Shown here in pieces: positions 9,051-55,945 of a stretch of 64,000 nucleotides of DNA. Each line of letters starts with the position of its first letter. Within the stretch, counting starts at the first letter, position 1. The notes beneath the pieces are model-generated. The model searched no databases, was not told the origin of the DNA, and saw nothing but the letters and a program-made list of their open reading frames with translations. This DNA comes from Raja brachyura (lineage: Eukaryota): contig OY740788.1 of NCBI GenBank assembly GCA_963514005.1, forward strand, positions 88,350,001-88,414,000, given 5' to 3'. Made by a program: the position numbers and the translations under genes.

Positions 9051-9109
9051 GTTGACACAAAGTGCCGGAGGAACTCAGCGGGCCAGGCAGCATTTCTGGA
9101 AACGTTTTT

Positions 9110-10634
9110 CAGACAATGTAACAGTGCAGGGTGTAAACATGGGTTCTAACCCGATACATCACCCATCCTTTTTATCCAGAGATGCTGCCTGACCCACTGA
9201 GTTACTCCAGCACTTTGTGCCTGTCTTCGGCATAAACCACCATCTGCAGTTCCTTTCTACACAGATGGAGTGAATGCTTTGTGGAGTATTTCCACTCCAT
9301 CTACAGGAGTGACCTTGAGCTTCCTGTTGTCACCACTTTAATCCCCCTCCACTGCTACCCTGACCTCTCTATGTGTCACCTCCGCACTGTTACAAGGGGG
9401 CACAATTCAAGCTTGCTGACATTTAATGATTTCTAAATTAATGCTTATTTGGTTCATTGGGATGTATTCCAATAACTGGCCAGGTAAACTCGCTGGCTTG
9501 TGAACACTCGGTGCTCCCCTTCCTTCCTTTATCACAGTGTAGGTATGTTGCAAAACTTACCTTAAGCAGCGCTGCAGTTCTGCCGCTCCCCGTGTGCGCG
9601 ATTTTGGCGCCTTTCAGAGGGGGGCGGGCTTAAAGTGCCGTTTTTCAACAGACCTGGATAATCGATCAATGTCGGGCGATTTCGTTGCGGAAGAAAAATC
9701 GCTCCGACATTTCATGAATGAAGTTATTTTTAAATTACTCTAAATTATTTATTAACTAGAGTAATTTAAAAATCACCTTCAAAAGCCGTGAGCACCGACA
9801 ACCGGAAGGATTTTGCGTAGGGGAGAAAAAAAGGTAAATAGTTTATTTTTATATTAAAAGTTGGTTTTTCGGGAGGCTTTAATAATATTTTTATGTTGCG
9901 AAATGGGGTCCCAAAAAATGTATGAACAAACAGTATTTTTCCTCCCGACTTCACCGCTAACCGCAATGTTCCAATCCACCGCATTCCACTAAAACCCACT
10001 CGCTAGTTGATTTAAATGGCCATTAATTTACAGGAATCAAACACTAAATTCCTTCCATTTGGCCCAGAAATTCATGAAAATGAGATTTAAAAATTATGTT
10101 ATATTGTGGATTATTGTGTGAATGTTATTTGGACACTTAGGCAATTAAAAAAAAGTTTATCTTTTCTTAAGAAATGGATAGATGTTTAGATCTACTCATT
10201 GAATTTTGTAATTAGCTACAATTAGATAACTAACTAATTATATGCTTTAATTTCAGGTCATCCAAGTAAGATTGTTTCACATTTGTTTCAGAATGCTTCA
10301 ATCTATAATAACTGAAAATTTCATTGAGTTCTCTTAATTTTTAAGAAAGTTATGGGCTTTTAACTTTTCCAGATCACAGCTTTTGAGTTAAGTCAATTGA
10401 AAGGCAAGATGCTAATTTCCGCGTATGAAAATGGCCATAACTTTCTTAATACTGAAGATATGAAAGTAAATTAGGTGTCAAATTAAACTTATTTTTATGC
10501 TTTATCTGATGGGATAAATTGCAGACTTGATTTTTTATATCTCAAAATTGTGTAACATTGCTACACAGTGCACTTATATCAGAATGGTCAATGAAGGTTG
10601 CAGGAACAGGGTGCCTCTGGGAACTGTGCTTTAT
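9110..10634 (+). repeat. Extra direct copy of the V-to-TM intron of gene A (about 12350-12853), split by a DNA element
   Basis: 9110-9539 matches about 12350-12789, and 10571-10634 matches about 12790-12853. Confidence 0.9.
9540..10563. mobile_element. Non-autonomous DNA transposon with imperfect TIRs
   Basis: Ends taggtatgttgcaaaactt and (reverse complement) tagcaatgttacacaattt. cacagtg is duplicated on both sides. The empty site is visible in the paralogous intron at 12781-12795. Confidence 0.8.
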
Positions 10635-10992
10635 ATTATGGAACATCAAAACTTTATCAGCAAGTCTCCTGCCCAACCAGAGGCCCTTGAACACTGCTGC
10701 ACAACCATTAAGATGCTTACTGTTCCATTCCTAGACCACACTTCAGTCAATCTGATCACCTGGCTGTGTTTTTACTTCTTACTTACAAGCGGACTTTACA
10801 AACTTACAAACAAAAGGAGTCTGGGCGACATCTACAACTCTCTCCATTTCTTGGGATTTATTGTTTTTTAAGCTCATTAAACTGTCCGAGACATTTCTTC
10901 ACCAGTACTGATTTCATTTGCCTCCTTGCCCAGGAATTAATGCCTGACGCTGTCTTTGAGTAAGGTAAGTTACATTTTGTAAGTCCCAAACT

Positions 10993-11287
10993 TTAGTTTA
11001 GTTTAGTTTACAGATATACTGCAGCATGAAAACAGACCCTTCAGCCCAACGAGTCCATGCTGACCAGCGATCACCCGTACACTAATTATAACCTACACAC
11101 TCAGGACAATTTATAGAAGCCAATTAACCTACAAACCTGCATGTCCTTGGGCTGTGTGAGGAAACCGGAGCACCCGGAGGAAACCCACACATTCCCAGGG
11201 AGAACGTGCAAACTCCAGACAGCCATCACTCATAGTCAGAATGAAACATGGCTGCTGTAAGGCAGTAACTCTACCACTGCACCACTG
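10993..11287 (-). mobile_element. tRNA-derived SINE (V-SINE/HE1-like) with (CTAAA)n tail
   Basis: Core tggagtttgcacgttctccc...gggtttcctccgggtgctccggtttcctc and a ctaaa tail. Related copies at about 27000-28895 (split by Tc1), 30340-30490, 30915-31195, 35140-35426, 44035-44332, 49905-50215, 58990-59520 and 63180-63385. Confidence 0.75.
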
Positions 11288-11349
11288 TTTATATAATTTC
11301 TAGCAAGCCTTATATTCCAATGATAGCCTATTGATATCCTCCCTTAAAG

Positions 11350-11694
11350 ATGCAAACCCTCCGATCCTGATCCAATTCCCGAGGCTGGAGCGTGTCACTG
11401 AGGGTCACACGGCACGGTTACGCTGCTCCATGGAGAACGCTGAAGTGGGAAACACTGACGTCCACTGGTACCGAGAACTACCCGGGCAGGACATGGAGTG
11501 GGTTTTAACACACGAGGCAGGAGGCAGCGTACGAAGGAGACCAGGCTTCACTGAGCGGTTCCAGCCGTTCAAAGACGTCTCCAACAGCAGCTTCATCCTG
11601 AATGTCACAAACGTGATGCTGAATGACTCTGCCGTCTATTACTGCACAGTGTGGGGAGATATCAGAGGGAACGGAACCCAGCTCAACGTCACTG
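11350..11694 (+). CDS. Gene A exon: germline-joined VJ-type Ig V domain
   Basis: aag| acceptor and |gtaagt donor, 345 nt, phase 1/1. Motifs: ARLRCSM (Cys B), VHWYR (Trp C), ERF, DSAVYYC, and J-like RGNGTQLNVT. Confidence 0.93.
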
Positions 11695-13067
11695 GTAAGT
11701 TCAGTTTACACAATACTCAATGATCTCCGTTAGTGTAGACATGGAACATGCAAGGGCTGGGATTGCAGTTTTCAAGTTAATTTAAGGTTAAACCTATGAT
11801 GATTTCCGTGTTTTTAAAAATATGATGTATTCAATCTTTTGTTTTTCTGAATTTGTTTATGCTTATTCTAATGCATTTAAAATTTAGGAAGTTCTTAGAC
11901 CCTGCAATATTGGGCAGACAAATACATGTAGAGTCATAGAGCATGGAGACAAACTTGCTCACGCTGGCCAACGTACCCCAACTACATCTACTCTATCTAT
12001 ACCTCTTAAATGTTATATATCTGTATAGGAACACACCTCAGTATCTGATACTCCAAGCTTATCCAACTGTGCCATAGCTAATCCCATTCAATGCAGGCAG
12101 GATTGGCAGGACCCAGACAGCGGGATCTTGAGGTGCAAGTCCATGTCTCCCTAAAAGTGCTATTCAAGTAGGTAGGGTAATAAAAGACTCTCCAGCAAAC
12201 TTGCCTTCTGTGGTCACGGTGTTCAGTATTAAAGCCAGCAGATCATGTTGCATCTGTATAAAATTGTGGTTCAGCCAAATTTGGAGAATGTCAGGCAGCA
12301 TCTCTGGGGTAAAAGGATGAGTGACGTTTTGGGTCAGAGCCCTTCATCAGACACAGTAACAGTGCAAGGTCTAAACATGGTTCTGACCCAAAACGTCACC
12401 CATCCGACTCATCCAGAGATGCTGCCTGACCCACTGAGTTACTCCAGCACTTTGTGCCTGTCTTCGGCATAAGCCAGCATCTGCAGTTCCTTTCTACACA
12501 GAAAGAGTGAATGCTTTGTGGAGTATTTCCACTCCATCTACAGGAGTGACCTTGAGCTTCCTGTTGTCACCACTTTAATCCCCTCCACTGCTACCCTGAC
12601 CTCTCTATGTGTCACCTCCGCACTGTTACAATAGGGCACAATTCAATCTCCAGGGTCAAATCTTGCTGACACTCAATGATTTCCAAATGAATGCTTATTT
12701 GGTTAATTTGAATGCATTCCAATAACTGGCCAGGTAAACTCACTGGCTTGTGAACACTCGGTGCTCCCCTTCCTTCCTTTATCACAGTACATTTATATCA
12801 GAATGGTCAATGAAGGTTGCAGGAACAGGGTGCCTCTGGGGACTGTGCTTTATTCAGTGGCCAGTTGGGTCAGCTGGTGGACGCGGGTTGAAAAGCAACA
12901 TTCCACCAGGAATTGGATAAATTCCAGTGAGACTCTGGGAAATAAGTGGGTTAGGATCAGTGGACCACTCTTTCAAAGAGCTGGCACAGAACGATGGGCC
13001 AAGTGGCTTCCTTCTTACTGACATTACGTTTCCCTGATGTTTACCCAATGATGTGATTTCTTTGCAG

Positions 13068-13202
13068 TTTCTCCAACGAAGGGGAATCAAGGTGTGGTGA
13101 TGTACCTTGCCTGGATCATTCTGCCTTTGGTGCTGGGAGTTCTTGCTGTTACTGGAGCCGTTTGCCTCATCAGACGCAGAGCTTCTGGATGCCACCAGTC
13201 CT
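13068..13202 (+). CDS. Gene A transmembrane exon
   Basis: tttgcag| ... |gtatgt, 135 nt, phase 1/1. Translates as (V)SPTKGNQGVVMYLAWIILPLVLGVLAVTGAVCLIRRRASGCHQS: an uncharged hydrophobic helix with an RRR stop-transfer. Confidence 0.88.
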
Positions 13203-13368
13203 GTATGTGTAACTAAATAATTCAGTCTGATCTGATTACTGTGTGGACTTAATGAAATTGGAAGGGCTGGATCCGATTGTCAAAGAGCTGTCATTATGTT
13301 GTTGGGCAGCAAAGTGGGATCACAGCCCCGAGGCTGCTCTTTGTGAGACCTTGTTCTCTGTTTCACAG

Positions 13369-13442
13369 CCCAGTCCGGAGCGGCCGATGACCAGACCCCA
13401 GGACCAGTTTATGAAAACATTTCCGTGGCAAGAAATGTCCCG
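13369..13442 (+). CDS. Gene A cytoplasmic exon 1 (PVYENI tyrosine motif)
   Basis: tttcacag| ... |gtgagt, 74 nt, phase 1/0. Translates as (S)QSGAADDQTPGPVYENISVARNVP. Confidence 0.85.
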
Positions 13443-13555
13443 GTGAGTTCTGATAGTTTTCTGGGATAAGCAGACCTGTGCTGGGATCCCTCTCCCTGAT
13501 GGTGTGTTATTGGCTTCCCATCAGGTATTTACTCCACTCACTTTGTGGATCATTG

Positions 13556-16138: not shown

Positions 16139-16180
16139 AAGTCAGGAGATCACCAGGCAGATCCAAACGCCATCTACATG
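16139..16180 (+). CDS. Gene A cytoplasmic exon 2 (first half of the ITAM)
   Basis: ttgcag| ... |gtgaga, 42 nt, phase 0/0. Translates as KSGDHQADPNAIYM and is conserved with 35911-35870. Confidence 0.82.
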
Positions 16181-16270
16181 GTGAGAAAAGTCACATTTAG
16201 TACGTTGAAGCGTTTCACTGACCACGAGTTGCTAAGCTGCTGTTTCTAACATTTCTTTGTTTTCTACTAG

Positions 16271-16313
16271 AATTTGCAAAGACCCACTCAGTAGATCTAT
16301 GGTCATCTCTGAG
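16271..16313 (+). CDS. Gene A cytoplasmic exon 3 with premature stop (NLQRPTQ*)
   Basis: ctactag| ... g|gtacgt. TAG at 16292-16294 stands where B has TCC, and TGA at 16310-16312 where B has CAA. Residual IYGHL codons lie between the two stops. Confidence 0.8.
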
Positions 16314-17992
16314 GTACGTTCCAGTAACTGTTGACAATGGCACATCTGCACCATATGATATCTGTCAACTGCTGCAGTAATGGTGAGGATTCAGACAGGA
16401 ACGACAAGCGTGGAGATGGGCCGACAGGAGTTCAGTCTGACTACAAGTTTGGTTCAGAGAGTAAATTAACACCCGTCACCGAGTTGGATTATCTGGCTAT
16501 GAACACGCATCCTTGTAATCCTGGTAACACTGAGTATTTAATCTGGATGAAGGGACCAGAGCAAGTTAATTTCTCATTCATTATCCCACCTTGGTTTCAG
16601 ATATTGTCTCTGACATTTCCAACAAAAGCTGTTCCATGAATTGTTGGGGATTGGACGATAGTGATCAAGATGAAACTCGCATTCCCTGACCAATACTTCA
16701 GTGATCAGTCACTGTGATATCAGAGAGAGGGCATCTGTGACTAAGGAAGAACTCAACCTCATTCTTACCTTAATTACCGTCAGGGTGAAGCAGGGTTCAT
16801 TTTTTTTCAGCAAAGGTCCCAAGACTCAAGTTGCCTTCAGTTTGGGAGGAGAAAGTGGGGTCGTACTGAAGTGTTTTCGATTTTAATGGGTTCTCTATAG
16901 AAACTTAGAACACAGAAACATACAGTGCATTCAGAAAGTATGCAGAACCCTTCACTTTTTCCACATTTTGTTACGTGACAGCCTTATTCTAAAATTGATT
17001 AAATTCATTTCTTTATCATCGATCTACACACAATATCCCAAAATAAAAAAGCAAAACGGGTGTTTAGAAATGTTGACAGTAATTAAAGAGAAATAACTGA
17101 AATATCACATTTACATAAGTATCAGACCCTTTACTCAGTACTTTGTTGAGGCACCTTTGGCAGTGATTACAGCCTCAAGTCTTCTTGGGTATGATGCTAC
17201 AAGCTTGGCACACCTGTATTTGGGTAATTTCTCCCATGCTTCTCTGCAGATCCTCTCAAGCTCTGTCAGGTTGGATGGGGAGCGTCGATGCACAGCTATT
17301 TTCAGGTCCCTCCAGAGATGTTCGATCGGGTTCAAGTCCGGGCTCTGGCTGGGCCACTCAAGGACATTCACAAACTTGTCACAAAGCCACTCCTGCGTTG
17401 TCTTGGCTGTGTGCTTAGGGTCGTTGTCCTGTTGGAAGGTGATCCTCCGCCCCAGTCTGAGGACTTGAACGCTCTGGAGCAGGTTTTCATCAAGGATCTC
17501 TCTGTACTTCGCTCCGTTCATCTTTCCCTCGATCCTGGCTAGTCTCCCAGTTCCTGCCACTGAAAAACTTCCCCACAGCATGATGCTGCCACCTCCATGC
17601 TTCACCGTAGGTATGGTATTGGCCAGGTGATGAGCGGTGCCTGGTTTCCTCCAGACGTGACACTTGGCATTCAGGCCAAAGAGTTCAATCTTGGTTTCAT
17701 CAGACCAGAGAATCTTGTTTCTCATGGTCTGAGAGTCCTTTAGGTGCCTTTTGGCAAACTCCAAGCGGGCTGTCATGTGCCTTTTACTGAGGAGTGGCTT
17801 CCGTCTGGCCACTCTACCATAAGGCCTGATTGGTGGAGTGCTGCAGATATAGTTGTCCTTCTGGAAGGTTCTCCCTTCTCCACAGAGGATCTCTGGAGCT
17901 CTGTCAGAGTGACCATTGGGTTCTTGGTCACCTCCCTAAACAAGGCCCTTCTCCCCCGATTGCTCTGTTTGGCCGGGCAGCTCTATGAAGAG

Positions 17993-20650: not shown

Positions 20651-20676
20651 GCAGCAAACAAGCGTCCCACAGCTGA
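20651..20676 (+). other. Gene A terminal exon (ancestrally coding GSKQASHS*, now downstream of the premature stop)
   Basis: tttaattttctttaaacag| acceptor. Homologous to 32525-32500 with the stop codon at the same position. Confidence 0.68.
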
Positions 20677-27167: not shown

Positions 27168-28791
27168 TGGTGCATTCAGAAAGTATTCAGCCTCCTTCAC
27201 TTTTTCCACATTTTGTTACGTTGCAGCCTTATTCTAAAATGGGTTAAATTATTTATTGTTTTATCATCAATCTACACACAATATCCCACAATAAAAAAGT
27301 GAAAACAGGTGTTTAGAAATGTTTACAGTATAACAAATAAATAACTGAAATATCACATTTACATAAGTATTCAGACCCTTTGCTATGACACTCAAAATTG
27401 AGCTCGGGTTCATCCTGTTTCCATTGATTATCCTTGAGATGTTTCTACAACTTGATTGGAGTCCACCAGTGGTAAATGGCATTGATTGGACATGATTTGG
27501 AAAGGCACACACCTGTCTATATAAGGTCACACAGTTGGCAGTGCATGTCAGAGCTAAAACCAAGCCACAAATATGAAGGAATTGTCCGCTGACCCCTGAG
27601 ACAGGATTGTGTCGAGACACATATCTGGGGAAGGGTATAAAACAATTTCAGCAGCATTGCAGGTCCCAAAGAGCACAGTGGCCTCCGGCATTCTTAAATG
27701 GAAGGACTTTGGAACCACCAGGACTCTTCATAGAGCTGGCTGCCCGGCCAAACTGAGCAATCGGGAGAGAAGGGTCTTGGTCAGGGAGGTGACCAACAAC
27801 CCAATGGTCACTCTGACAGAGCTCCAGAGTTCCTCTGTGGAGATGGGAGAACCTTCCAGAACGATAACTATATCTGCAGCACTCCACCAATCAGACCTTT
27901 ATGGTAGAGTGGCCAGACGGAAGCCACTCCTCAGTAAAAGGCACATGACAGCCCGCTTGGAGTTTGCCAAAAGGCACCTAAAGGACTCTCAGACCATGAG
28001 AAACAAGATTCTCTGGTCTGATGAAACCAAGATTGAACTCTTTGGCCTGAATGCCAAGCGTCACGTCTGGAGGAAACCAGGCACCGCTCATCACCTGGCC
28101 AATACCATACCTACGGTGAAGCATAGCGGTGGCAGCATCATGCTGTGGGGATGTTTTTCAGTGGCAGGAACTGGGAGACTAGTCAGCATTGAGGGAAAGA
28201 TGAACGGAGCAAAGTACAGAGAGATCCTTGATGAAAATCTGTTCCAGAGCATTCAAGTCCTCAGACTAGTGTTGAGGTTCACCTTCGAACAGGACAATGA
28301 CCCTAAGCACACAGCCAAGACAATGCAGAAGTGGCTTTGTGACCAGTTTGTGAATGTCCTTGAGTGGCCCAGACAAATCCCGGACTTGAACCTGATCGAA
28401 CATCTCTGGAGGGACCTGAAAATAGCTGTGCATCGACGCTCCCCATCCAACCTGACAGAGCTTGAGAGGATCTGCAGAGAAGAATGGGAGAAATTACCCA
28501 AATACCAGTGTGCCAAGCTTGTAGCATCATACCCAAGAAGACTTGAAGCTGTAATCGCTGAAAAAGGTGCCTCAACAAAGTACTGAGTAAAGGGTCTGAA
28601 TACTTATGTAAATGTGATATTTCAGTTATTTATTTTTAATTACTTTGCAAAAGTTTCAAAACACCTGTTTTTGGATTATGTATTGTGTGTAGATTGATGA
28701 TAACAGTGAATTTAATGCATTTTAGAATAGGGCGGTAACGTAACAAAATGTGGAAAAAGTGAAGGGGTCTGAATACTTTCTGAAGTCACTG
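27168..28791 (+). mobile_element. Tc1 (DD34E, IR/DR) transposon copy 2, near full length, inserted in a SINE
   Basis: TA-flanked ~210-bp TIRs with an inner direct repeat aagtattcagaccc. SINE halves lie on both sides. Confidence 0.95.
27573..28586 (+). pseudogene. Tc1 transposase with one N-terminal stop (TGA at 27597-27599), otherwise open for 325+ codons
   Basis: Paired-like HTH region, WSDETK, QDNDPKH followed by 34 residues to the E of LIEHLW. Reads MKELSADP*DRIVSRH. Confidence 0.88.
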
Positions 28792-31700
28792 TATGTGTAA
28801 ATTGTCTCCAGTGTGTGTAGCTTGTGTTATGTGCGGACTCGGTGAGCCAAAGGGCCTGTTTCCGCACTGTATCTCTAAACTGAACTGAACTAACAGACCT
28901 CTGGTCATTTGGTCCAAAGTGCTCCCTCACTGACACCTCACTCACTTGCCCTGCTCTATTCCCCAAGAGTAGGTTGAGCTCTGCCCTCTCCACAGCAGAG
29001 TCCTCTATTATGTGTGGTGAAACCATTCTGAACACACTCAACAAATTCCATCCCATCTAAGCCTTGAACACTATTGCAGCCCAGCCTATGTTAGGAAGGT
29101 TAAAAGATTATACTTTGAATCGGGAAAAACTAAGGGCCAAAATGCTTCTATTGCAATTTCATTGGTAAGTGGAGAACCGCTTAAAGTTACTTTGGAATTT
29201 GATGAGCAGAATAAAGTGTATCTTTGGAAAAATAACAGTTCAAGTGGAATAATGGAACGACAGTGCCCTCTGGTGGGAATGGGGATATCTGCCACAGATC
29301 CGTATCTCTTCCAGTGCTGAGCACTAGCCTTCAACCCTCTGGGTGAGAGTAGAACGGTATGGGCTGGTAGTAGAGGGGCCAGGATATTGCCTCCAGCATC
29401 TCCGGGGTCGGATGCTGGAAGTGTTCTCTGAGACAGAGACGAACGGGTGAGGAGAGGGACTTTGGTCGGTGGGTCGAGCTGTTTGAGGATGATGGAGAAT
29501 CTTGAATATAAACCATTGAACCATCCTCAACATTCACTCACTCCACCACAGGTACACAGTAGCAGCAGCTTGTAGCATCTTCAGGATACATTGCAGCAAC
29601 TCACCAAGACTCCTTAGGCAGCACCTGTTAAACCCAGCTAGAAGGACAAGGGCAGCAAATGCATGGTAACATCACCCACCTAGATGTTGTCTTCCAATCC
29701 ACCCATCATACTGACCTGGAAACATAACAATGTTCCTTCACCATCGCTGCTTCAGCAACCTAGAACTCTCTCTGCCTCAGAGCATTGTGGGTCCACATTG
29801 ATTAGTACGGGTGAAAGGGGTGATGTGGAGAAGGCAGTAGAATAGGGGTTGAGATGAAGGGATAGATCAGCCATGCTTGAATGGCGGAGTAGCCTTGATG
29901 GGCCGAATGGCCTAATTCTGCTCTGATCACTGATGACGTTCTGACCTCCAGGATCATAGTGTTTAGCTCATCTTCTCAAGGGCAATGATGGATGGCCAAT
30001 GACATGTTATCTCAGCCCGCAGAGCCCTCATCCCCTCACTGAGTAAAATAAGAAATAGCTCATCATTTAGGAAGGTTTGATTTAATTAATCCATGTCAAC
30101 ATGATCTCATTTTGTGTGTATTCTTTTGTATTTTTTGAGGATGTTACAAGCAGAGGGAAGGGAGGAGACCCCGTAGATAGAGAGTATTTACATTTGTAAC
30201 GGCATTTGACACTAAAGATGGTGCACATTCCGAGCTCATTGTATTACAAGGTGAGTTTTAGGAAGGATTTAAAGCTGGTCCTCAAATAGAAAACTGCAAG
30301 TTGGAATAAGTGGGCTTTATTCAGGTTGGATGCAATTGGGCAGCGCAGTGGCTCAGCTGGTAGAAATACTGCCTCACAGTGTCAGAGACCTAGATCTGAT
30401 CCTGACCTCGGGTACTGTCTGTGTGGAGTTTGTATGTTCTCCGGGTGTTCCAATTTCTTCCCACATCCCAAAGACATGTGGGTTTGCAGATTAGGCAGCG
30501 GGCGGGACAGAGAGAGAATGTAGTCGGGTAGAACTGGGAAGGGGAAGGGGGAGGGGGAGGGGAGGGGATGGAGAGAGAAGGTAGATGATGAGATGTTTTC
30601 ACCAAAGGGAAAATCTCAAACAAGGGGACACAGTTTCAAAGTCAGAGAGTGATCATTTAAAGCTGAGGTATGCATTATTCTCACATAGGGTGGTGAATGT
30701 TTTTACCATAGAGAATTGCAGAGGCCAGATTATTTAAGTTAGATATCGGAGAAGGTTTGAATGTGTGAGGGATTGAGAGCGATGGTCAGAATATATTGCG
30801 TGGTGGAGCAGGATTGGGGGCCATGTGGCCTACTGCTGATTCAATATTCTTGTATTGGGTCTCATCTTTGGAGGGTTGAATACTGTTCTGTCCCAGTTAT
30901 CTTTTCTCAAGTCCGGTGTGGTAGTGGCAGAGCTACTGCCTTGCAGCACCAGAGGTCCAGGCTCCATCCTTGTCTGTATGGAGTTTGTACGTTCTCCCCG
31001 TGACCCGTCTGCTTTTTCTCCAAGATCTTTGGTTTCCTTCCACACTCCAAAGTCATACAGGTTTATAGGCAAGTTGTCTTGGTCTAAATGTAAAGTTGTC
31101 CCCAGTGTGCGTGGAGTAGTGTTAATGCGCAGGGACCGCTGGTTGGCGTGCGCCGAAGGACCTGTTTCCGCGCTGTATCTTAAAAACTAAAAAGATAACA
31201 CCACCTCTTTCCATTCTGATCTTAGCACCACTTCTTTCCTTGTTAACGTTGCTCCATGCTAATACTTAAGTGGCACATCACACCCTTCCTTTGATAATCT
31301 ATGAAACATTGCTCCTCATCGGTAATGATATTAAGACGCACCACAATCACTTTTATGTATGTTTATGCATGGTATTAAAAACATCACAAACTTCCACTGA
31401 AAGAACGCGTGTCATGTCCTTACCACAATGACATGTAGGACTCAGACATTCTGCAGCTGCAGGGATATTTGACCTGCCTCACTAACTCTGGAACAGGTGT
31501 AGCAATGATTTACTAAGGAGGTTGGAGTTATACGGAGAGATTGGATATGTTGGGATTGTTTTCCTGGAGGCAGGAGGCCGATGTAATCTTACAGAGGTTT
31601 ATAAAACCAGGAGGAGTTTAGATAAGATTCACACTTCCCAAAATCGGGGAAGTGTAACACTAGGGGGCATAGTTTAAGGTAAGAGGGGAAAAATAATTAA

Positions 31701-35736: not shown

Positions 35737-35779
35737 CTTGGAGATGACCGTAGATGGACTGAGTTGGTCTTTGCAAATC
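35737..35779 (-). CDS. Gene B cytoplasmic exon 3 (second half of the ITAM: DLQRPTQSIYGHLQ)
   Basis: ttttccgctag| ... caa g|gtacgt, 43 nt, phase 0/1. Read-through of the donor would end GTFQ* at 35723. Confidence 0.83.
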
Positions 35780-35869
35780 CTAGCGGAAAACACAGAAATG
35801 TTGGAAACAGCAGCTTAGCAACTTGTGGTCAGTGAAACACTTCAGAGTCCTAAACGTCACATTTCTTAC

Positions 35870-35911
35870 CATGTAGATGGCGTTTGGATCTGCCTGGTGA
35901 TCTCCTGCATT
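35870..35911 (-). CDS. Gene B cytoplasmic exon 2 (NAGDHQADPNAIYM)
   Basis: ttgtag| ... |gtaaga, 42 nt, phase 0/0. Confidence 0.83.
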
Positions 35912-40785: not shown

Positions 40786-41866
40786 AGAAGGAATAACGTG
40801 GTGGGACGTCTTTGATTATATTTGCTGCTTTTCCAAACCAATATGAAGTGTGGATGGAGTCAATGGTGGGGAATGTGGTCTGTGTGCTGGACTGGGCCAC
40901 ATCACACAACACAACGGGCTACATTGCTGATTCTGGCTTCAAGATCGTTTGCAGTCACTGGATCTAACGGAGTTATTGAAAACCACAGTGTCAAGTAAAG
41001 GCTCTTACAATTTGACCCAAAGATTGCAGTCACTGAGAAAGATTTACATAGGACCTAGAAGATGAAAGGGACGGAATGCTGGACGTTACACACACCCCAT
41101 CAACAGGGGTTACAGAGCAGTCTGTGAACAGACTTTGTTTCCCAATCTCTGAAACTCACAGTCAGTTTGTGGTTGAACAACAGGAGGGTGGGAGGAAATA
41201 TATCAGAACAGTGGGTCCGAAATATTGGACAGGGATCCATTCATTGTTCAGGAGAACAAGTGCTGAATATTTTCAGCATGATGATGAGAGGTGTTGGAAC
41301 TACACTCGTAAGAAACATATAATGTCTGCACTCACTAAAACGACAGCAGACTCTAATCATAGACACACGCTGCATGGAAATAGGAACAGCAGGCACATAC
41401 ATACACAACACACATTTCATGTCATGGAGGATTCAGCAGTTTCATGGGGAATGTCCTTTGAAAGGATTCTGAGACTGCCTTTTATATGGATACACACTCG
41501 ATGGAGTTTGGAATGGAAGTTATCAGACAACAATTGAAGCAGTTGAGCTAATGGTGGAGCTGAGAGGAAGGTTCTGAGTAGACTAAAGCAGGTGAGGTCC
41601 AGAGGTTGAACTCTTCTCAGCTGAAGCTGAACCATCAGACGGGTTGTGAGACGTGACATTGTGTTCTCACTGCTCATGAACAGTGCAAGTCCCACTCTCA
41701 TTGACCAATCCACTACGTACATTTACACATCATAAAGCCATTGCGACAATACTCAATGATCCACAAAGTGAGTGGAGTAAATACCTGATGGGAAGCCAAT
41801 AACACACCATCAGGGAGAGGGATCCCAGCACAGGTCTGCTTATCCCAGAAAACCATCAGAACTCAC

Positions 41867-41940
41867 CGGGACATTTCTTGTCACAGAAATGTTTTCATAA
41901 TCTGGTCCTGGGGTCTGGTCATCGGCCGCTCCAGACTGGG
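41867..41940 (-). CDS. Gene B cytoplasmic exon 1 (QSGAADDQTPGPDYENISVTRNVP)
   Basis: tttcacag| ... |gtgagt, 74 nt. Confidence 0.83.
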
Positions 41941-42107
41941 CTGTGAAACAGAGAACAAGGTCTCACAAAGAGCAGCCTCGGGGCTGTGAATCCCACTTTG
42001 CTGCCCAACAGCATAATGACAGCTCTTTGACAATCGGATCCAGCCCTTCCAATTTCATTAAGTCCACACAGTAATCAGATCAGACTGAATTATTTAGTTA
42101 CACATAC

Positions 42108-42252
42108 AGGACTGGTGGCATCCAGAAGCTCTGCGTCTGATGAGGCAAATGGCTCCAGTAACAGCAAGAACTCCCAGCACCAAAGGCAGAATGATCCAGG
42201 CAAGGTACATCACCGTGCATTGATTCTCCTTGATTCTCCTTCGTTGGAGAAA
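42108..42252 (-). pseudogene. Gene B transmembrane exon, frameshifted by a 10-bp tandem duplication
   Basis: 145 nt versus 135 nt in gene A. tgattctcct occurs twice at 42221-42240, ahead of the TM codons. Confidence 0.85.
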
Positions 42253-43625
42253 CTGCAAAGAAATCACATCATTGGGTAAACATCAGGGAAACGTAATGTC
42301 ATTAAGAAGGAAGCCACTTGGCCCATTGTTCTGTGCCAGCTCTTTGAAAGAGTGGTCCACTGAACCTAACCCACTTATTTCCCAGAGTCCTACAATAGGT
42401 TCTCACTGAATTTATCCAATTCCTGGTGGAATGTTGCTATTCAACCCGCGTCCACCAGCTGACCCAACTGGCCACTGAATAAAGCACAGTCCCCAGAGGC
42501 ACCCTGTTCCTGCAACCTTCATTGACCATTCTGATATAAATGTACTGTGGTAAAGGAAGGAAGGGGAGCACCGAGTGTTCACAAGCCAGTGAGTTTACCT
42601 GGCCAGTTATTGGAATGCATTCAAATTAACCAAATAAGCATTAATTTAGAAATCATTAAATGTCAGCAAGCTTGAATTGTGCCCCATTGTAACAGTGCGG
42701 AGGTGATACATAGAGAGGTCAGGGTAGCAGTGGAGGGGATTAAAGTGGTGACAACAGGAAGCTCAAGGTCACTCCTGTAGATGGGGTGGAAATACTCCAC
42801 AAAGCATTCACTCTTTCTGTGTAGAAAGGAACTGCAGATGCTGGTTTATGCCGAAGACAGGCACAAAGTGCTGGAGTAACTCAGTGGGTCAGGCAGCATC
42901 TCTGGATAAGTCGGATGGGTGCCGTTTTGGGTCAGAACCCATGTTTAGACCTTGCACTGTTACTGTGTCTGATGAAGGGCTCCGACCCAAAACGTCACTC
43001 ATCCTTTTACCCCAGAGATGCTGCCTGACATTCTCCAAATTTGGCTGAACCACAATTTTATACAGATGCAACATGATCTGCTGGCTTTAATACTGAACAC
43101 CGTGACCACAGAAGGCAAGCTTGCTGGAGAGTCTTTTATTACCCTACCTACTTGAATAGCACTTTTAGGGAGACATGGACTTGCACCTCAAGATCCCGCT
43201 GTCTGGGCCCTGCCAATCCTGCCTGCATTGAATGGGATTAGCTATGGCACAGTTGGATAAGCTTGGAGTATCAGATACTGAGGTGTGTTCCTATACAGAT
43301 ATATAACATTTAAAGAGGTATAGATAGAGTAGATGTAGTTGGGGTACGTTGGCCAGCGTGAGCAAGTTTGTCTCCATGCTCTATGACTCTACATGTATTT
43401 GTCTGCCCAATATTGCAGGGTCTAAGAACTTCCTAAATTTTAAATGCATTAGAATAAGCATAAACAAATTCAGAAAAACAAAAGATTGAATACAACATAT
43501 TTTTAAAAACACGGAAATTATCATAGGTTTAACCTTAAATTAACTTGAAAACTGCAATCCCAGCCCTTGCATGTTCCATGTCTACACTAACGGAGATCAT
43601 TGAGTATTGTGTAAACTGAACTTAC

Positions 43626-43971
43626 CAGTGATGTTGAGCTGGGTTCCGTTCCCTCTGATATCTCCCCACACTGTGCAGTAATAGACGGCAGAGTCATTCA
43701 GCATCACGTTTGTGACATTCAGGATGAAGCTGCTGTTGGAGACGTCTTTGAACGGCTGGAACCGCTCAGTGAAGCCTGGTCTCCTTCGTACGCTGCCTCC
43801 TGCCTTGTGTGTTAAACCCCACTCCATGTCCTGCCCCGGGTAGTTCTCGGTACCAGTGGACATCAGTGTTTCCCACTTCAGCGTTCTCCATGGAGCAGCG
43901 TAACCGTGCCGTGTGACCCTCAGTGACACGCTCCAGCCTCGGGAATTGGATCAGGATCGGAGGGTTTGCAT
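43626..43971 (-). pseudogene. Gene B V3 exon (VJ Ig domain) with a +1 frameshift
   Basis: 346 nt. Four C at 43834-43837 where the paralogs have three. The ORF track splits it into 43766-43990 and 43597-43929. Confidence 0.88.
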
Positions 43972-44699
43972 CTTTAAGGGAGGATATCAATAGGCTATCA
44001 TTGGAATATAAGGGTTGCTAGAATTTATATAAAACAGTGGTGCAGTGGTAGAGTTACTGCCTTACAGCAGCCATGTTTCATTCTGACTATGAGTGATGGC
44101 TGTATGGAGTTTGCACGTTCTCCCTGGGAATGTGTGGGTTTCCTCCGGGTGCTCCGGTTTCCTCACACAGCCCAAGGACATGCAGGTTTGTAGGTTAATT
44201 GGCTTCTATAAATTGTCCTGAGTGTGTAGGTTATAATTAGTGTACGGGTGATTGCTGGTCAGCATGGACTCGGTGGGCCGAAGGGTCTGTTTCCATGCTG
44301 CAGTATGTCTGTAAACTAAACTAAACTAAAGTTTGGGACTTACAAAATGTAACTTACCTTACTCAAAGACAGCGTCAGGCATTAATTCCTGGGCAAGGAG
44401 GCAAATGAAATCAGTACTGGTGAAGAAATGTCTCGGACAGTTTAATGAGCTTAAAAAACAATAAATCCCAAGAAATGGAGAGAGTTGTAGATGTCGGCTA
44501 GACTCCTTTTGTTTGTAAGTTTGTAAAGTCCGCTTGTAAGTAAGAAGCAAAAACACAGCCAGGTGATGAGATTGACTGAAGTGTGGTCTAGGAATGGAAC
44601 AGTAAGCATCTTAATGGTTGTGCAGCGGTGTTCAAGGGCCTCTGGTTGGGCAGGAGACTTGCTGACAATATTTTGATGTCCCAGAGAATTATCTGAACA

Positions 44700-47744: not shown

Positions 47745-48089
47745 TGGTTACGTTGAGCTGGGTCCCATTCCCTCTGATATCTCCCCACACTGTGCAGTAA
47801 TAGACGGCAGAGTCATTCAGCATCACGTTTGTGACATTCAGGATGAAGCTGTTGTTGGAGACGTCTTTGAACGGCTGGAACCGCTCAGTGAAGCCTGGTC
47901 TCCTTCGTACGCTGCCTCCTGCCTCGTGTGTTAAAACCCACTCCATGTCCTGCCCGGGTAGTTCTCGGTACCAGTGGACGTCAGTGTTTCCCACTTCAGC
48001 GTTCTCCATGGAGCACCATAACCGTGCCGTGTGACCCTCAGTGACACGCTCCAGCCTCGGGAATTGGATCAGGATCGGAGGATTTGCAA
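47745..48089 (-). CDS. Gene B V2 exon: germline-joined VJ Ig domain, intact
   Basis: tccctttcaag| ... |gtgagt, 345 nt, phase 1/1. ARLWCSM, VHWYR, DSAVYYCTVWGDIRGNGTQLNVT. Confidence 0.93.
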
Positions 48090-55594: not shown

Positions 55595-55945
55595 TGGTTA
55601 CATTCAGCTGGGTTCCATTTCCAAATAAAAACCCCCAAATGCCACAGATGTAATCAGTAGAGTCGGCAATCTTCACCTCTCTGATGGTCAGTGAGTAGCT
55701 GTTACTGGCGTCGTCCCTGGAAAGCTGAAATCGCTCGGAGAAGCCGCGTGACCTGTAAGTTTGGCCACTCACATAAAAACTAAGTATTTGTTTTCCATTA
55801 CGTGAGTTGTACCAGTGAACGCCGAATTTGTCCACCGTGTTACGCACATTGGTGCTGTTCAGGACACACCGTATCTCCACTGTTTCACCTTCACGCACCA
55901 CCAGAGCTCCTGGGGATTGGATCAGGGATGTGTTTCCTTTTAGAC
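55595..55945 (-). CDS. Gene B V1 exon: N-terminal germline-joined VJ Ig domain
   Basis: ttattacccacag| ... |gtgagt, 351 nt, phase 1/1. LKGNTSLIQSPGALVVREGETVEIRC..VHWY..SERF..DSTDYICGIWGFLFGNGTQLNVT, with canonical FGxG. Confidence 0.92.

Follow-up and report, generated by a model that had tools for sequence, protein, structure and literature searches.

Does a receptor gene that stops just short of the second tyrosine of its ITAM still encode a receptor, with altered signaling, or is it a dead copy? The question is raised by gene A, one of two inverted paralogs (A on the plus and B on the minus strand) in the window, the 64,000-nt stretch of DNA analyzed here (G000:C8:88350001-88414000; window positions are counted from its first letter). 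The first-pass annotation suggested that gene A had lost the second ITAM tyrosine while gaining a second YxN motif, and that it may be a rewired partner of gene B. Judged from the sequence, the feature is real and the gene A product is likely to have a function, and we weigh below what that function might be.

Exon C3 and the architecture of gene A

The changes lie in exon C3, which is preceded by a phase 0 intron splitting the first YxxL. A G>A change at 16271 replaces D with N at Y+2 and creates YMNL; a TAG at 16292-16294, where gene B has TCC, falls two codons before the second ITAM tyrosine; and a TGA at 16310-16312 stands opposite CAA in gene B. The exon letters and translations of A and B bore out the first-pass annotation on the TAG and on the motifs (PVYENI and AIYMNL in A, PDYENI and AIYMDL in B). 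A more informative comparison is gene C, a paralog 108 kb upstream that is about 97-98% identical to A in the DNA around the tail and reads in one open frame from leader to stop. The two genes differ in C3 at four letters: 16271 (D>N), 16293-16294 (the stop) and 16300 (silent). Since the same TGA ends gene C immediately after a complete ITAM, the A/C type uses it as its regular stop, at a cost of only about 9 residues behind the ITAM; the "second stop" of the earlier reading is there in the letters but is not a lesion. The gain of a second YxN likewise stood in part: the N at Y+2 is new relative to C, while VYENI is common to A, C and a tail-less copy, G0.

The TAG is not an assembly slip, as a short-read contig from run X1 (possibly the source sample) matched 16153-16341 with 0 differences and the TAG recurs in other organisms. 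Its two adjacent changes form a palindrome (TAGATCTA) and, by inspection, could stem from a single template-switch event; a TCG in X16 record 9 marks a one-step route to the TAG codon.

The resulting tail of gene A has 56 residues and two tyrosines (YENI and YMNL), against 62 residues and three tyrosines in gene C. An ITAM, defined as two YxxL/I 6-8 residues apart, is found in C and not in A, which stops before the second tyrosine; YENI provides another YxxI, 23 residues upstream of YMNL and too far away for an ITAM. The Y-x-N core, the ITT-like Grb2 motif, is present twice (YENI and YMNL), and the Y-x-x-M of ITT/CD28-type PI3K sites is absent, Y+3 being I and L. YMNL is also the single cytoplasmic YxxL that characterizes a hemITAM, but the triacidic stretch before its tyrosine is absent, with one acidic residue in the preceding six.

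Table 1. Positions of gene A and gene B features in the window.
Feature	Position	Strand	Remarks
Gene A last V exon	11350..11694	+	germline V-J type, G-x-G-T motif; open, phase 1-1; Pfam V-set E=4e-16
Gene A stalk/TM exon	13068..13202	+	open; TM without charged residue
Gene A cytoplasmic exon C1	13369..13442	+	first YxN (YENI)
Gene A cytoplasmic exon C2	16139..16180	+	ends in Y-M, phase 0
Gene A exon C3	16271..16313	+	AG/GT ends, phase 0 in; D>N, TAG, vestigial second-tyrosine codon, TGA
Gene A putative last exon C4	20651..21016	+	3' UTR in A and C; homologous to B last coding exon; AATAAA 21011
Gene B Va exon	55595..55945	-	open; leader outside window at C8:88417223
Gene B first Vb exon	47745..48089	-	open
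Gene B second Vb exon	43626..43971	-	346 nt; frame shifted by +1 in a G run; skippable; assembly error possible
Gene B TM exon	42108..42252	-	145 nt; 10-nt duplication, frameshift before TM segment
Gene B C1 (PDYENI)	41867..41940	-	
Gene B C2 (35911-35870) and C3 (35779-35737)	35737..35911	-	ITAM complete; frame lost in this assembly
Gene B last coding exon C4	32500..32525	-	8 codons and stop

Gene A begins well outside the window, with a leader at C8:88286080 that has a GT donor and open Va (C8:88320458) and Vb (C8:88328411) exons. The eight kept exons (leader, Va, Vb, Vb, TM, C1-C3) have AG/GT ends, form one open frame to the TAG and span 80 kb. The leader, 34 kb upstream of Va, was identified with the help of homologues; a nearer candidate, 258 nt from Va, was incorrect. 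Two further internal exons are dead: in Vc, 229 nt are replaced by a 996-nt insert, while Vd carries a 2-nt deletion and is split by a SINE-like insert that is also in C and has 122 matches in the region analyzed. Both retain an acceptor and a donor, and their inclusion would bring stops; as all V exons are phase 1-1, skipping them preserves the frame. Two changes in the first Vb, V>D and N>I, are unusual. None of 20 public sequencing runs listed for the sequence was an RNA run, and the contigs of eight of the runs pass through gene A intron DNA-like, with no splice joints.

The donor at 16313 lies 19 nt 3' of the TAG, close to the 20 nt estimated previously, and homologous last exons begin at 20651 in A and 32525 in B. 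As a rule, transcripts whose stop lies within 50-55 nt of the last junction escape NMD, and the TAG is thus inside the escape zone. The earlier description of the gene A exons in the window as open was accurate for V, TM, C1 and C2, and the missing leader that it named as grounds for a pseudogene fragment was found. Its proposal that A is not a dead copy has the leader, the open exons, the NMD-escape zone, an old, shared version of the tail and a shark clade with the YxN+YxN tail on its side, with the two dead internal V exons against it.

By similarity, gene A is a mosaic, agreeing with B at 96.8% over the V-TM-C1 block, with G0 at 98.7% over TM-C1 and with C at 97.4% over the tail block. Ahead of the last V exon, part of the V-TM intron occurs a second time (9109-9538 and 10564-10634), interrupted by about 1 kb of other DNA; this is the scar of a duplication that supplied gene A with a fresh V exon. 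A possible poison exon of 31 nt precedes the V exon at 10935-10965, with a counterpart in B: its acceptor and donor are both good, and in both genes each of the three frames contains stops.

Paralogs and the surrounding receptor cluster

A DNA search found three copies of the tail in the genome, those of A, B and C. Gene B had served as the intact comparator and partner of A, a role that its structure did not sustain: it is frameshifted twice in this assembly and its frame is lost before TM even if the bad V exon is skipped. The intact ITAM gene is C. Five short homopolymer runs are one base longer in gene B than in A (41754-44683 in B, 10639-13555 in A); this is a pattern that long-read errors can give and bears on the +1 frameshift of B. 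Copy G0 (G000:C8:88181290-88186711, L005) consists of Va, a broken V, TM and C1, is without C2 and C3, and ends 1 kb before the gene C leader. Dead V exons are present in both A and C.

The cluster of gene A also holds three ITIM/ITSM-type genes (D, E and F) at G000:C8:88486093-88685418, with 4-5, 2 and 4 V exons and tail exons at C8:88506282, 88561508 and 88685305. Vb is 96-99% identical across the activating and inhibitory genes, and between paralogs Va is far more variable (77-93% of DNA identical) than Vb (97-99%). By sequence, the cluster is one of paired activating/inhibitory Ig receptors, with similar ectodomains and opposing predicted tail types. A further family member lies at G000:C8:89230927-89253762 (L049-L051); its second V domain stands in a 1904-codon open frame that continues into a long Asn/Gly/Ser-rich repetitive stalk, followed by a TM exon at 89253628, and a skate homologue has 1999 aa (P0055). 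The window additionally contains two transposon copies, 92% alike, at 16918-17992 and 27600-28796, which we take to be Tc1/mariner-like; the latter has a 328-codon open frame at 27600-28583.

Distribution of the altered tail in skates and sharks

The spread of the altered tail was studied in the same eight public runs, seven of which cover the TAG site (X8 does not). The TAG version was found in contigs of three, X1, X2 and X16, and probably in a fourth, X5. The N+TAG contig of X2 (organism label B) has two differences from gene A in 189 nt, at 16217 and 16310 and neither at the stop, while record 4 of X16 (organism label F) has eight in 188 nt and, by depth sums, the gene A letter at 16271, 16293, 16294, 16300 and 16310. 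The X5 contig (organism label C) has one difference from A, its place not given, so that its TAG is probable. X6 (organism label C, another sample), X11 and X12 yielded the intact form only, which does not amount to absence as contigs drop variants. Fixation across individuals, which the first-pass annotation had proposed to check, was not supported, X5 and X6 sharing one organism label. CGA, intermediate between CAA and TGA, occurs in X2, X11 and X16.

By word shares, the divergence is about 2% for organism label B and about 5-5.7% for label F. At intron positions 16200 and 16222, X16 record 4 agrees with two D-type copies and differs from A, B and C, which share the alternative letter at each position; between genes A and C, 1 of 90 intron sites and 4 of 43 C3 sites are different. 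Together these letters and counts indicate, in two lineages, homogenized intron flanks around retained C3 motif differences, a reading that rests on one example and on contigs that may be mosaics. The simplest reading of the sequences is that the N+TAG version would be older than the split from F and was kept distinct beside a homogenized intron, or else that it is an old polymorphism. The clustering of A/C differences in C3 (4 in 43 nt against 30 mismatches in 1756 nt) gave P=0.007 a priori and P=0.04 with the adjacent pair counted as one event (three events); treated as a scan statistic, it was not significant (P=0.52). The dN/dS comparison suggested earlier for the tail exons took the form of a substitution count between A and C in TM, C1 and C2, and its eight nonsynonymous and zero synonymous changes gave no signal of purifying selection.

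Of the 222 candidates in a search with the V exon, 91 were longer homologues; they come from sharks and rays, and the gene A V exon itself is 93-96% identical to those of three skates. The family domains are V-set with a joined J-like end, and their best matches are antibody V regions. Pattern-based sorting of the 91 tails gave 38 of ITIM/ITSM type, 20 with YxN and an ITAM, 4 with YxN and YxN, and 29 with other or no motifs. The four YxN+YxN proteins (P0063, P0070, P0072 and P0076) are from sharks, presumably of three orders; their tails are database gene models, one of which has another isoform with an unrelated end (P0092). They share with gene A the family, the two tyrosine positions, the N at Y+2 and the lack of a distal YxxL, their Y+1 varying (E, M, T, V) and their Y+3 being V or M. 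None of the 20 complete ITAMs has N at Y+2.

To place these tails, we inferred a tree from TM, C1 and C2 (23 rows, 85 columns), leaving out the trait columns, near-duplicate ITAM rows and gene B. The four shark proteins, which have a TM of their own, formed a clade with 100/100 support, A and C grouped at 99/99, and a joint YxN clade appeared in no bootstrap tree; an AU test on the 85 protein columns still left one common YxN clade unrejected (p=0.174). The case for separate skate and shark origins comes mainly from the 97% DNA identity of A to the ITAM gene C and from the old ITAM end behind the stop, a vestige that distinguishes gene A from the shark members. Three further searches, all weak, added nothing: a tail-based search for additional YxN genes in sharks recovered nothing beyond the query itself (1 of 123 candidates), a TM-exon search gave one skate model without a tail (1 of 50), and a search of gene A's own genome with the short exons of a shark-type YxN TM and tail found none (best E 0.76). 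The parallel shark clade suggests that the YxN+YxN end state is useful.

Possible functions of the two-YxN tail

We tentatively favor the reading that gene A, its ITAM converted to a two-YxN tail, encodes an ITT-like co-stimulatory receptor predicted to recruit Grb2-family adaptors rather than Syk/ZAP-70. The eight open, spliceable exons, the TAG 19 nt from the junction, the N+TAG version in X2 and X16, the homogenized flanks and the shark clade all argue for it. The transcript would skip the two dead V exons and escape NMD. Without the distal YxxL, the tandem SH2 domains of Syk/ZAP-70 find no ITAM, and since the TM is without a charged residue, no adaptor chain is expected. A Src-family kinase would phosphorylate YENI and YMNL, and Grb2/Gads SH2 domains would bind both motifs; the receptor would then amplify signals begun by C or by an antigen receptor, with no triggering of its own. 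The two sites may allow Grb2-SOS bridging into chains and not branched gels; bivalent Grb2 binding gives chains without branching and bivalent binders limit gel formation in a LAT model (PMC3291652). Against the co-receptor reading stand the dead V exons with their splice sites, the V>D and N>I changes of the first Vb, the 8:0 substitution count and the scan statistic, together with the intact-only runs, the AU test and the model-based nature of the shark tails.

Among known systems, the ITT and ITT-like tails (membrane IgG/IgE, CD28, DAP10) are closest: like gene A they have a pY-x-N Grb2 site, there single, and co-stimulate without an ITAM, the YxN core being the conserved Grb2-binding part of the motif (PMC4263166). 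Gene A differs in having two YxN, in a YMNL without the YxxM for PI3K, and in deriving its second site from the first tyrosine of a former ITAM. DNAM-1 also belongs to the ITT-like receptors. The CEACAM paired receptors of Xenopus, reptiles and human (CEACAM3), as described in PMC5112662 and PMC13278318, resemble the skate genes in their cluster of ITIM/ITSM and ITAM members, ectodomains kept alike by gene conversion, a YxxL split by a phase 0 intron, and tails that include single-tyrosine ITAM-like and YxN motifs. Unlike theirs, the skate ectodomains are all tandem disulfide-type V domains with a J-like end, the likeness being one of description. The skate MDIRs are likewise multigene activating/inhibitory V-domain receptors, but are described as CD300/TREM/pIgR-like (PMC3031540), which sets them apart by description from a family with a J-like end and antibody V regions as best matches.

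An alternative that we consider rather unlikely is that gene A represents an old haplotype, null or in decay, of a cluster evolving by birth and death, the stop having inactivated a redundant activating receptor with D>N as a neutral passenger. Transitions like G>A are common, and a null haplotype can survive for a long time. Decay is indeed widespread in the cluster (the frameshifted B, G0 without its tail exons, the dead V exons of A and C), the TAG form is unseen in three of the seven covering runs and differs between X5 and X6, and A and C show no synonymous excess. A null haplotype would nevertheless have kept open frames and canonical splice sites in eight exons across 80 kb, its N+TAG version would have persisted across about 5% divergence beside a homogenized intron, and its tail is of the type that a conserved shark clade has. 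Somewhat less probable again is an expressed decoy, signaling-dead or damping, that shares its ligand with C and the ITIM genes and uses YMNL as a YxxPhi endocytic signal or as a Grb2 sink. The near-identical Vb across activating and inhibitory genes would fit a shared ligand, YMNL falls in the YxxL/M/V/I/F endocytic or ITAM-like class of Xenopus CEACAMs (PMC5112662), the limiting effect of bivalent binders in the LAT model (PMC3291652) is compatible with damping, and an ITAM with one tyrosine and no triacidic residues gives no signal (PMC3576117). Endocytosis does not need N at Y+2, however, and the four shark proteins have kept it while Y+1 varies and Y+3 is V or M.

Two other routes appear very improbable. 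The first-pass annotation had pointed to hemITAM signaling, by which gene A would act alone through Syk. YMNL is a YxxL, and A shares with CLEC-2 and Dectin-1 that one YxxL is left, but gene A is a type I Ig receptor and not a C-type lectin, and the hemITAM receptors are type II dimers. The acidic residues also tell against this proposal: three are required where A has one in six before the tyrosine, and a one-tyrosine FcR-gamma ITAM stays silent unless the triacidic stretch is added (PMC3576117). Equally remote is the idea that the new AG at 16293-16294 acts as an acceptor, splicing out the stop and leaving a tail with the distal YxxL only. The 24-nt downstream offset is in frame, the native acceptor has lost its +1 G, and a shark model uses a downstream acceptor in the same exon (P0050 versus P0093); yet the pyrimidine share is 0.50, against 0.75 for the native acceptor, which comes first.

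Returning to the co-receptor reading, co-stimulatory YxN tails (CD28, DAP10, the IgG tail) usually count as an invention independent of ITAMs. The A/C pair, 97% identical around the tail and four letters apart in one exon, offers a natural test of a two-step change from an ITAM to a Grb2 tail. Literature searches, with partial coverage of subscription journals, found no description of the family or of a YxN tail in it, and PMC10751288 names other non-rearranging V-J genes and not the gene A cluster. The family, with its ITIM, ITAM and YxN types, occurs in all sharks and rays sampled, and the database labels of its members are only uncharacterized or X-like. It is conceivable, though on balance doubtful, that this apparently undescribed family evolved a third signaling class twice, long ago in galeomorph sharks and recently in skates, each time converting the first tyrosine of the ITAM to a Grb2 site and losing the second, and that selection holds the skate version apart from its ITAM twin even though gene conversion acts only 50 nt away. 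If so, gene A would be an ITAM-to-ITT conversion caught in the act, its ancestral motif still legible beyond the stop.
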